Sequence record: MW286157.1
Direction: 5' to 3' (one strand)
Length of the DNA stretch: 64,000 nucleotides
DNA from: Escherichia phage vB_EcoM-BECP11
Position 1 is the stretch's first letter; every line of letters begins with the position of its first letter. Below the pieces are notes generated by a model, which saw only the letters and a list, made by a program, of their open reading frames with translations, ran no database searches and was not told the DNA's origin. A program made the translations under genes and the position numbers. Below, piece after piece: positions 45,220-49,360 of the stretch.

Positions 45220-45999
45220 TTATACTCTTGGACCATATATTGCTCCAACGTTTTGCCATGTTGGAGCTGATCCTGCTACAGCAGCACCAGGACTTGTCGG
45301 AGGTGTTGAATAACCAGCACCTGGATTAGCATATTGTCCTGGCTGACCAACTTCACCACCTCCACCTGCATAATACCCTGTACCAGTATTACCGCCAGCA
45401 CCCGGAGACGTCAAACTAGCATTACCACCAGGCCATCGAGCACCATTATTTCCGCCTAAGCCGAATGGACGACCGCCACCGCCACCACAAACATATTTTC
45501 CCGCCCAGTTGTTGGCTTGTGAATAACCACCGCCGCCACCGCCGCCACCGGCAATAGCTCCGCCATTATTAATTCGCAGACGTCCACCTATATCATTCTG
45601 GATACATACGCCGCCATCAGATGCCCCAATTGCACCAGCGGCCCAACCATTCCCACCACGACCATACATCGTTACGCCGTGTATGTTCAGTTGAACGTAT
45701 TCATTAGGTGTATCTCCGTACATGAAGAATAAAGGAACATCTCTAGAATATGATACTAAATCTCCAGTAATATTAAACACTATAGGTGCACTACCTGCCT
45801 CAAAACATCTATCTCGGAACCATTGACCATTGAAGTTATGGTCTGCTCCAAGCGTGTGAATTACTTCAACAGATCGACCTATCATATTACTCATCCAGAA
45901 CGGAATGCCCATTCTTAATCGTTGGGCCGCGCCGCCCATCCAATTTTGTCCTGTATTAACTACTGCAGACGATCCTACCCACGGTCCTGCTACTGCCAT
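45220..45999 (-). CDS. 38: gp38 tail-fibre adhesin (T2/T6 type, glycine-rich)
   Basis: 259 aa from ATG with SD ggagg; poly-Gly blocks (GGGGGGG, GGGGG) separating variable segments. Confidence 0.8.
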
Positions 46000-46010
46000 A
46001 TAAACCTCCA

Positions 46011-46026
46011 AGGGGCCGAAGCCCCT
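46011..46026 (-). other. intergenic RNA hairpin aggggc-cgaa-gcccct between 37 and 38
   Basis: perfect stem; no U-tract on the transcribed strand. Confidence 0.4.
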
Positions 46027-46030
46027 CTTA

Positions 46031-49000
46031 TTATTTTAACAATGATTTAACTAATGCTTTAAGTTCTTCAATTTCTGATTTAAGTTCCGCAATTTCTGCA
46101 GTATGCTCATTGATTGCAGCTGTATTTAAACCAATTACACCGTTATAGTTCAAACGAAGTAAAGCTTCGCCATCAGGGTCACCTTCAACTAATTCAGGCA
46201 AAATAGCTTGAACTTCTTGAGCTATCAAACCGGCGTTAGGTTCCCATTTCTGATTGCCTTCTTCATCTAGGCCTCGCTTCTGCATATAAGTGTAACCGTT
46301 AATTTTTGAAAGTGTTTGTGAAGCATTTTCAAATTTAACAAGGTCTTTTTTAACACGAATATCAGAACGGACATAAACATCGCGGACATATGTGGAATAA
46401 CTGTCATTCGTCTGGACAAGATGGCCGTGAGAAATAATTGCTTTGCCAACTTCTGTCCAAAAAGCTCCATTTGAATCCCAAAGGCCAGGATGAGAATGAT
46501 AAGATGAAGACCACGAAGCAATATGCGCTCCATTTGCAACCATATTGATTCGGCCGTCACCACCATGAACTAATCCAGTATCATTATCACCAATAACAAG
46601 ACACGGGCCGGTCCATACAGGGTCACCACCGCCAGCTGATAATCTTGCTCCAGCTTGAACCATATTAGGAGCATACAGAACTCCATTGTGGTGAAATTCA
46701 TAGATAGCTTGTGGGTCAGAACCATTTTCCTGGTTACCAACACGGATAATAGCCTGAGCCCATTGGTTAGTAGTGCGTCGCATACCAAAATCAACACCCG
46801 ATATGTATCCTTCATTAGTAATACCAGATTTTCCTTTGATAATCGGGTAATAACTATCATTACCGACATTGCCAAAATCTACAAATATTGGCGCTTCTTG
46901 TCGCCATTGGTTTCCCCAATCACCAGCTTGGTGCGCAACCCATTGTGTACCGTTTATATGAAGGCGATCTCTATTAAAATTAAATGTTCCTTGACCTTGA
47001 GGAGAAAGCGATATTTCGCCGTTATTTGTTATGTATACACCGCCTTGTGTAATGTAACTATAAAAACCTAGACCATTGTCGCCGCCGCCTTTGCCTATAT
47101 ACCAGTTACCTGTACCACCTACATCACTACGGATATGTGATGAAGCACCTTCGCCCGCAGTTAAAATGAGAGCATCATTGCCTGCCGATAAAGTCAATTT
47201 ACCAGTCATCGTGTCGCCTTCTTTAGAAACACGAGTAGCTATTGCATCGCGAATATTTGTGGTTTCTCCCGCAGAAGTAAACGATTTCCAAATATCTGAG
47301 AAAATATTACCATTACGAGCAATAGTAGCTTCACCGCCGCCAACTTGAACGTTATCGGGGAAATTAACTGTACCATCAGCATTAAATCTTGATGTATGGC
47401 CTTGTGAACCATCTTCTTTCAAATGATGTAAAACAAATGTACCAGAATTAATTTCAGTACCTAAAGACCAAACGGCTTTACCGTTTAAAAACTTCTGTTT
47501 AACAATAGGATAATATTTGCTTACAGCAGCATCATCGATTTCTTGGAAAATAGGAGCAGCTTGTGAATACTGAATATCATAACCACCGGCACCAGCCCCA
47601 TGACCAGCAAATTTAATATAACCATTTGCAGCGAACGTATTATAACTTGACTGTAAATCTGGAATAGTAACTTTACCGGAATTTAAAGCTACGCTGAGAG
47701 GACGTAAAGGCCCAATATCACCGGTTTCTCCTTCGCCAAATGCTGTAGGAATAATATGAAGACTTTCTTCTGAGCGTCTAAAAATAACTCCGTAATCATT
47801 GTTCCAAATACGAAGACCATTAACAGCATTTGTAGTGATTTCGCCAATGGTATGAACTGCTCGGTCAACCCAAATATCCTTTTTCGCAATAATATTTTCA
47901 TTAATTGTTTGTTGACCATTTAACACGGCTTCAACCGTATTATCTTTATTACGTTGAATATAATGCATCCATCCAATATCATCAGAAATTTCCATGACAT
48001 TTTTACGGGTGCCTTCACTTGGATTAGTAAAAGTATTTCCCCAAACAGCTATATACATGTTATCAACGGAGCTTTGACCCATGGTATAGCCTTTAAACAT
48101 TAAAGTTGAATTATTATTTCTACCATCGATATTAACAGAACCACCAATAACGTCAATATTGCCTGGAGTAACTAACAAACCGCCATGAGTATTAATGTTT
48201 GTAGTGCCCTTGCCGCGGAAATAATGATGATAGTTACCGCCTTGATAATATCCTAAAAGAGTCTGACCATCCCCAAACGCGTTATTATCATGGTATGTCA
48301 CTACAGTAGCAAGAGCATAATTTTCAGTTGGAGGAGTAGTTAAATCGGTTCCGTTAGTAGAATATCCAGCTATAAATTTTCTTAGGCTAGTTGTTTCGCT
48401 TGGACTAAATAAAAACGTTTTTGTGCCATTGTTAACACTGAAATAATATCCGTCTTGATGCCATTTAAATCCAGTATCATTATCTCCTAAAGCGATACTA
48501 GACGGTCCTAATATTGAGTAATCCTTAGTTCCGGGTGTTAAACCGATGGAAATTGAGTGACTTGATTTAATTCCGCCGCTCCAAGTAAATGACCAAAGAT
48601 AAGCGTCTAATCCATCTCCACTATACCATGTTATTCCATCATTATCTTTAACTTCATGGAAAATACCAGAACCAACTGCATTACGCATAACACGAAGATG
48701 ATTAATAGCAGTAGTGCTTTCAGACAATGGAACATTGTCTGCCATCGAATAGATGTCATAATCATCTTTAACTTTTTTATTGGTGATAACTTTATTGGTA
48801 TAAATTACCGGAGTTGATACAGATTTCCACCCAAAAACTTCTGGTGAAGAAAACAAACCATTTCCATTAAAAGCGAAAGTGCTTTCTGAACCGGCTTTGT
48901 AATCTTGAACTCTGATGTTAATTACTTGTGTAGTTAAACCGTCATTAGCAGGAGAAAAAATAATACCGCGTTCACGGTCGGCGGAATCATGAAAACGAAC

Positions 49001-49360
49001 GTGTGCCGTTCCTGAACTTTTTGTAATAAGTTCTCCGCCTTCAGTCATAATCTGCCCAGCAGCAATAATATCACGAGTTACTCGAGCAATACCGGTTAAA
49101 TTAAAATTACCAGTCTGGGTGAATGTACCGTTTAAAGTATAATCGCCAGTTTGGTTATAATTGCCTTTATGAATAACATTCCCGTCAATACTACCGCCTT
49201 TAGCAAAACCTAAATCAATAATATTTCCCTGGTCATCTTTAGTAAAAAGTACACGGTCTTTTAAGTTTATAGCCAATTCACCTTCGGCTAATACTGAAGC
49301 AGCTGGACGTTGACCTGCCGTTTTGCTTCTTTTAAATTGTATTTGTTTTAAAGTAGCCAT
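46031..49360 (-). CDS. 37: long tail fibre distal subunit gp37 with C-terminal intramolecular chaperone domain
   Basis: 1109 aa; C-terminal ...[10 protein letters not shown]...GLIAQEVQ... typical of S74-type self-cleaving chaperone. Confidence 0.9.

Follow-up and report, generated by a model that had tools for sequence, protein, structure and literature searches.

The stretch analyzed here, 64,000 nucleotides (nt) of Escherichia phage vB_EcoM-BECP11 (MW286157.1) and hereafter the window, belongs to a T4-like phage (Tequatrovirus) and carries adjacent genes for the distal subunit of the long tail fibre (g37) and for an adhesin at its tip (g38). We are highly confident that this cassette encodes a T2-type distal tail-fibre tip of the AR1/PP01 subtype, with a self-cleaving gp37 capped by an OmpC-binding gp38. 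Cleavage, a 3:1 stoichiometry, the presence of gp38 in virions and binding to OmpC are what we infer from homologues. A cassette of this kind is already known: for nearly identical proteins, the literature describes the architecture, how gp37 is processed, the polyglycine-II adhesin fold and which contacts are made with OmpC. The initial annotation had described a T2/T6-type host-range cassette; Pfam searches and T4 controls uphold the T2-type architecture, but by identity the subtype is that of AR1 and PP01.

The two genes lie in the long-tail-fibre operon, which occupies the minus strand from g34 to t (lengths in amino acids, aa):

55081-51212, minus strand: g34, 1289 aa, gp34 domains by Pfam
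51203-50088, minus strand: g35, 371 aa
50025-49369, minus strand: g36, 218 aa, gp36 domain by Pfam
49360-46031, minus strand: g37, open reading frame (ORF) for the long tail fibre distal subunit precursor, 1109 aa, 120 kDa
45999-45220, minus strand: g38, tail-fibre tip adhesin, 259 aa, 26 kDa
45189-44533, minus strand: t (holin), 218 aa, T holin by Pfam

ORFs on the opposite strand were assigned to asiA, arn, motA and gene 52 by position and length, using the annotations of PP01, AR1 and T4. Gene 38 follows immediately downstream of g37, with a 31-nt gap between the g37 stop and the g38 ATG. We take the ATG at 45999 as the true start of g38: a GGAGG Shine-Dalgarno sequence (46005-46009) lies 5 nt upstream, the position agrees with the annotated starts in PP01 and AR1, and the Pfam Gp38_N profile aligned from residue 1. 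Counted from this ATG, the product has the 259 residues initially reported. The TTG at 46011 chosen by the ORF finder (263 aa) falls within the intergenic hairpin/Shine-Dalgarno region and was rejected as spurious. Over the 24-kb stretch around the cassette, DNA identity to Shigella phage Sf23 and to the Escherichia phages ECML-363, KMB42 and G157lw ranges from 96.6 to 97.4%. The cassette itself shares 98.4% identity with Ec_O157kw, where g37 is annotated as long tail fiber protein, and 97.6-98.3% with KMB42, G157lw and ECML-363; in 120 phage records, at least 80% of its length is covered. The GC content peaks at 0.51 inside g38 (45250-45749), compared with ~0.35 in the flanks, and the plus-strand GC skew is strongly negative there. 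This peak is due to the GGN glycine codons of the gene; a foreign origin of g38 was ruled out, as other Tequatrovirus g38 genes match it at 97-98% identity.

Protein identities to the window separate the related phages as follows:

AR1: gp38 98%, gp37 92%
PP01: gp38 97%, gp37 85%
T6: gp38 65%, gp37 35%
T2: gp38 49%, gp37 35%

PP01 has the same gene order, the same protein lengths (1109 and 259 aa) and an identical g37-g38 intergenic hairpin, and differs in gp37 by patches of 54-72% identity at aa 151-350 and 451-500. AR1 shares the context g36-g37-g38-t-asiA and has only 4 differences in gp38, whereas its gp37 is 1103 aa long and diverges from that of the window at aa 401-600 and 951-1000. T2 and T6 share the Pfam domains of both proteins, the SDxRxK motif, the glycine-rich motifs and a C-terminal WQNVGxIYGxRV; they differ in the variable loops of gp38 and in the length of gp37 (1341 aa in T2, 994 aa in T6). 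T4 agrees with the window in the position of the locus, in the conserved N-terminus of gp37 and in a similar intergenic UUCG hairpin, but its gp37 has a receptor-binding tip of its own.

Because g38 sits as T4 gene 38 does, between g37 and t, we considered whether its product could be a T4-style assembly chaperone that stays outside the virion, with gp37 itself carrying the receptor-binding tip. T4 gp38 is indeed such a chaperone and is absent from virions (PMC9603124). However, a BLASTP comparison of T4 gp38 with the window gp38 gave no similarity (E = 17), and T4 gp38 has no GP38 match in Pfam. At 183 aa it is both shorter and unrelated, in agreement with what the initial annotation said of T4. 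The window gp38, in contrast, matched PF05268 GP38 ("phage tail fibre adhesin"; E 5.8e-72, 242.5 bits) and PF21721 Gp38_N (E 2.7e-21, 75.7 bits), both over the full profile length and with a cutoff of 25 bits. The control searches agree: Peptidase_S74 is present in the gp37 proteins of T2, T6 and PP01, whereas the Pfam search of T4 gp37 found no S74 domain and returned Collar and Phage_fiber domains instead, tip domains that the window gp37 lacks. Moreover, the window gp38 is 99% identical to a crystallized domain that cross-links to OmpC (PMC12892980). Against this evidence, a T4-style chaperone is next to inconceivable, and the results point instead to a T2-type tip in which gp38 is the adhesin.

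The self-cleaving component of such a tip would be the C-terminus of gp37. The sequence SDIRVKKD is encoded at 46343-46366 (gp37 aa 999-1006), its sole match in the window, and had 0 matches in 100 shuffles; GLIAQEVQ follows at aa 1044-1051 (46208-46231). The S74-type chaperone signature initially read from these two motifs was exact in position and is backed by Pfam, which places PF13884 Peptidase_S74 ("chaperone of endosialidase") at aa 999-1058 of the 1109 residues with an E value of 4.6e-12 and 46.5 bits (cutoff 22). The features of this region are:

46367-46603, minus strand: distal tip, predicted gp38 docking surface after cleavage, gp37 aa 920-998, aligned to 6F45_A
46349-46366, minus strand: SDIRVK motif with putative Ser999 nucleophile and Lys1004 base, by motif position
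46034-46366, minus strand: S74 intramolecular chaperone domain, gp37 aa 999-1109, 12.3 kDa, PF13884

From what is established for the S74 family, Ser999 and Lys1004 are presumably the catalytic pair. Over its last 190 residues, gp37 aligns to gp37 of Salmonella phage S16 (PDB 6F45_A, E 1.1e-44), and the chaperone domain by itself to that of S16 with an E value of 2.3e-35. In this alignment, SDIRVK corresponds to SDRRIK of S16, a shared S-D-x-R-x-K pattern with the lysine five residues after the serine. The domain also aligns weakly to the MYRF auto-processing domain (7DC3), which reads ADLRAK, with alanine at the serine position. According to PMC7917993, the last 113 residues of S16 gp37 form an intramolecular chaperone that is autocleaved after trimerization at DLNVS^SDRRIKK, and its removal lays bare the surface on which gp38 docks by inserting its tryptophans. 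By alignment with S16, cleavage of the window gp37 is expected at DVYVR(998)^S(999)DIRVKK, and the predicted products would be a 108-kDa mature gp37 subunit and a released domain of 12.3 kDa. The docking role of aa 920-998 is likewise a prediction from S16 (PMC7917993).

The S74 bit score is moderate, and the domain could in principle be a non-cleaving remnant, kept on the mature fibre or serving as a mere trimerization tag. This is very improbable given how the motif has been preserved, with S999, D1000, R1002 and K1004 invariant in all five gp37 proteins compared (window, PP01, AR1, T2 and T6) although gp37 is otherwise only 35% identical to its T2 and T6 counterparts. In addition, the S16 homologue autocleaves, and in T2 and T6 gp37 is known to be processed and then capped by gp38 (PMC7917993, PMC3157838). 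A retained chaperone would also block the surface on which gp38 docks. We therefore favour a gp37 that cleaves itself and is then capped by gp38.

The architecture of gp38 is consistent with this role. Two domains can be recognized, the second of which bears the five receptor-recognition loops:

45880-45999, minus strand: N-terminal attachment domain, gp38 aa 1-40, Pfam Gp38_N
45223-45879, minus strand: receptor-binding domain, gp38 aa 41-259 (beta-helix, polyglycine-II sandwich and loops A-E), by PDB 9V85
45307-45645, minus strand: span of loops A-E, as defined in PMC12892980
Loop A, gp38 aa 119-124: WAAGAI, identical to PP01
Loop B, gp38 aa 161-170: identical to PP01
Loop C, gp38 aa 184-189: NNGARW, identical to PP01
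Loop D, gp38 aa 204-209: NTGTGY, identical to PP01; G208R in AR1
Loop E, gp38 aa 225-231: NPGAGYS, identical to PP01

In the attachment domain, W7, W20 and W35 are invariant in the gp38 proteins of the same five phages; the corresponding tryptophans of S16 gp38 are prongs inserted into pockets of gp37 (PMC7917993). Over aa 1-256, the whole protein aligns to S16 gp38 (6F45_D, E 1.9e-52), and 6F45 contains three gp37 chains and one gp38 chain. S16 thus shares the complete arrangement, a gp37 tip with an S74 chaperone and a gp38 with a tryptophan domain and a polyglycine-II sandwich. It differs from the window in its variable loops, so that it recognizes another OmpC variant, and lacks a 12-residue insertion that is found in the window gp37 tip. 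Glycine makes up 24% of gp38 overall and 33% of aa 113-259, with runs of eight, five and four residues. In the alignment, invariant glycine-rich columns alternate with variable segments. The initial annotation had noted variable segments set apart by glycine stretches; its reading of these stretches as linkers does not hold, since in the S16 and PP01 crystal structures the glycine-rich motifs build the core, a polyglycine-II sandwich, and the variable loops extend outward from it (PMC12892980).

The receptor-binding domain gives the most direct indication of the receptor. Residues 37-259 of gp38 are identical to PDB 9V85, a GFP-fused PP01 gp38 receptor-binding domain, at 221 of 223 positions (E 3e-142). 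The only two differences, S236 and P257 in the window for N and S in PP01, lie outside the loops, and the residues functionally tested in PP01 (Y159, K168, Y169, G208, Y209, A228 and Y230) are all conserved. AR1 gp38 also has S236 and P257, and its loops differ only by G208R. The receptor of PP01 is OmpC, which its gp38 engages through loops protruding from the beta-helix and polyglycine-II sandwich (PMC12892980). In cross-linking, G208 of loop D, the residue replaced by R208 in AR1, was joined to OmpC loop 5, and Y230 of loop E to OmpC loop 7 (PMC12892980). Specificity comes from the entry of loop E into the cleft between OmpC loops 5 and 7 and also needs a GVIN insertion that is present in OmpC(O157) and missing from OmpC(K-12) (PMC12892980). 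AR1, which is specific for O157:H7, uses OmpC as well (PMC9603124, citing Yu 2000 and Yoichi 2005).

Other receptors are used by T2 (FadL/OmpF), T6 (Tsx) and Ox2 and K3 (OmpA). Binding to a non-OmpC receptor such as one of these is what the mutant panel suggested in the initial annotation would imply. In its favour, the window gp38 shares its Pfam family with the adhesins of T2 and T6 and departs from PP01 at S236/P257, and in Ox2 a single substitution in a variable loop can be enough to change the receptor (as cited in PMC12892980). We consider such binding highly unlikely. All five loops and every residue important in PP01 are identical, both substitutions are outside the loops, and the OmpC-using AR1 likewise has S236/P257. 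At only 49% and 65% identity, the loops of the T2 and T6 adhesins cannot be aligned with those of the window gp38. O157-type OmpC is expected because the cassette is of the AR1/PP01 subtype and has its loops and tested residues as in PP01, and on this basis the phage is predicted to adsorb through gp38 to O157-type OmpC, not to FadL, Tsx or OmpA.

Taken together, these comparisons suggest a path from precursor to receptor. Gp37 would be made as a 120-kDa precursor and trimerize with the aid of its own C-terminal S74 chaperone (aa 999-1109), which would then remove itself by Ser999/Lys1004 autoproteolysis at R998/S999 to leave a 108-kDa mature subunit. Cleavage would uncover the docking surface, where one gp38 could bind through the N-terminal domain that bears its tryptophans (aa 1-40). 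At its C-terminus, gp38 has a polyglycine-II sandwich assembled from the glycine-rich motifs, which would then display five variable loops at the tip of the fibre. Loop E (NPGAGYS), placed by loops B and D, would enter the OmpC(O157) cleft between extracellular loops 5 and 7, and this contact would result in reversible adsorption and set the host range.

Near-identical cassettes are found in phages isolated on E. coli O157 hosts, namely Ec_O157kw, G157lw, CAM-21, AR1 and PP01. In PMC9603124, moving PP01 g37/g38 into T2 sufficed to abolish K-12 infection and to confer O157 infection. This transfer of the O157 range supports the initial proposal that gp37 and gp38 are the likely host-range determinants, here too as a prediction for the window. 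A possible view, to which we assign a smaller but appreciable probability, is that the cassette is necessary without being the main limit, and that recognition of lipopolysaccharide (LPS), the short tail fibres (gp12) and systems of host defence have an equal share in deciding which strains are lysed. K168 and Y169 in loop B of PP01 may also recognize LPS sugars (PMC12892980), and near-identical gp38 proteins occur in phages from O157, LF82 and Shigella alike; the sufficiency of the g37/g38 swap argues the other way, and we favour the cassette as the main determinant.

Several observations weigh against the reading of the cassette given above. A gp38 of this type (95-99% identical) is found in the non-O157 phages LF82-4 (E. 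coli LF82) and sb2 (Shigella flexneri), and the same type occurs in Shigella phages Sf23 and SfPhi01. From its occurrence on LF82 and Shigella, it is a variant of OmpC, and not the O157 serotype, that would define the specificity. The gp38 attachment domain carries seven substitutions relative to PP01 (aa 8-19), and gp37 aa 951-1000, just before the cleavage site, are only 74-76% identical to AR1 and PP01. The exact scissile bond, R998/S999, depends on one secondary citation for S16. With the substitutions in the gp38 attachment domain, the docking interface is a variant, though one common to the deposited phages MLF4 and SfPhi01.

The phage thus pairs a receptor-binding domain whose loops are identical to those of PP01 with a variant docking interface, in which gp37 aa 951-998 are ~75% identical to AR1/PP01 and the gp38 attachment domain is closer to AR1 than to PP01. 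The docking tip of gp37 also has two HxH motifs, HSH at aa 955-957 and HGH at aa 978-980 (46421-46498, minus strand). PP01 and AR1 keep the first as HLH and have FGH at the position of the second, while S16 lacks the first owing to the 12-residue gap. In T4, HxH motifs coordinate iron in the gp37 needle. There is a slim chance that the variant interface or a putative metal site alters the geometry or stability of the fibre tip, and hence the host range, with the receptor loops unchanged.

The divergence at the docking tip is part of a wider mosaic in gp37. Compared with AR1, the stretches aa 1-400 and 601-750 are 98-100% identical; identity falls to 42% at aa 451-500 (47860-48010), the most divergent patch, and is 74% at aa 951-1000 (46360-46510). 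The most divergent patch lies in a further domain:

47693-48013, minus strand: Gp34_trimer-like domain, gp37 aa 450-556, Pfam PF21446, E 9.8e-07, 29.7 bits

The same residues match T4 gp34 structures in the PDB (4UXE and 5NXF, E ~1e-16). The patches indicate recombination, the usual patchwork of tail-fibre genes, and the pattern is common to the deposited phages MLF4 (99.2% DNA identity) and SfPhi01 (99.3%).

The receptor loops allow a confident prediction from sequence, with O157-type OmpC as the receptor and loop E as the key determinant. The cassette is also the module to swap or mutate for host-range retargeting.

We also examined expression signals around the cassette, where two elements stand out:

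50049-50056, minus strand: putative T4-type late promoter TATAAATA upstream of g36, exact motif
46010-46027, minus strand: hairpin between g37 and g38 with a UUCG tetraloop, GAGGGGC-UUCG-GCCCCUU, immediately 5' of the g38 Shine-Dalgarno sequence

Only two exact TATAAATA sites were found on the minus strand between 44000 and 56000, one at 50056 before g36 and the other at 55123 before g34, so that g36, g37 and g38 are probably co-transcribed. The promoter before g36 is the likely start of a late g36-g37-g38 transcript, perhaps including t. The 7-bp stem of the intergenic hairpin is present in the RNA fold, and the hairpin is conserved in PP01, AR1, T2 and T4; in T6 the stem has a UUU loop. It may stabilize the mRNA or modulate translation of g38. 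Downstream of g35, at 50063-50084 (minus strand), lies another UUCG hairpin, GAGGGAGCC-UUCG-GGCUCCCUU, which has a T-run. Together with the adjoining late promoter, it forms a terminator-like element abutting a promoter ahead of g36. A sigma-70 promoter scan of the cassette gave 20 sites against 20.9 expected from shuffled sequence, and thus no excess; the exact T4 late-promoter motif was the more telling signal. Across the window, the Rfam scan returned no family at gathering score, and an ARAGORN search for tRNA and tmRNA genes was likewise negative.

Two further genes in the window are worth recording. The hinge protein gp35 (50088-51203, minus strand) has an above-cutoff Pfam match at aa 58-127 (31.1 bits) to PF15711 ILEI, the FAM3/interleukin-like EMT inducer domain. 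T4 gp35 also matches ILEI (35.9 bits), and the match is therefore a property of the gp35 family. One uninterrupted ORF of 606 aa, with the TOPRIM_C region included, encodes the GyrB-like large subunit of topoisomerase II (31777-33597, plus strand). T4 encodes this subunit in two pieces, genes 39 and 60, the latter with a translational bypass; the window gene at 31777-33597 has no such split.

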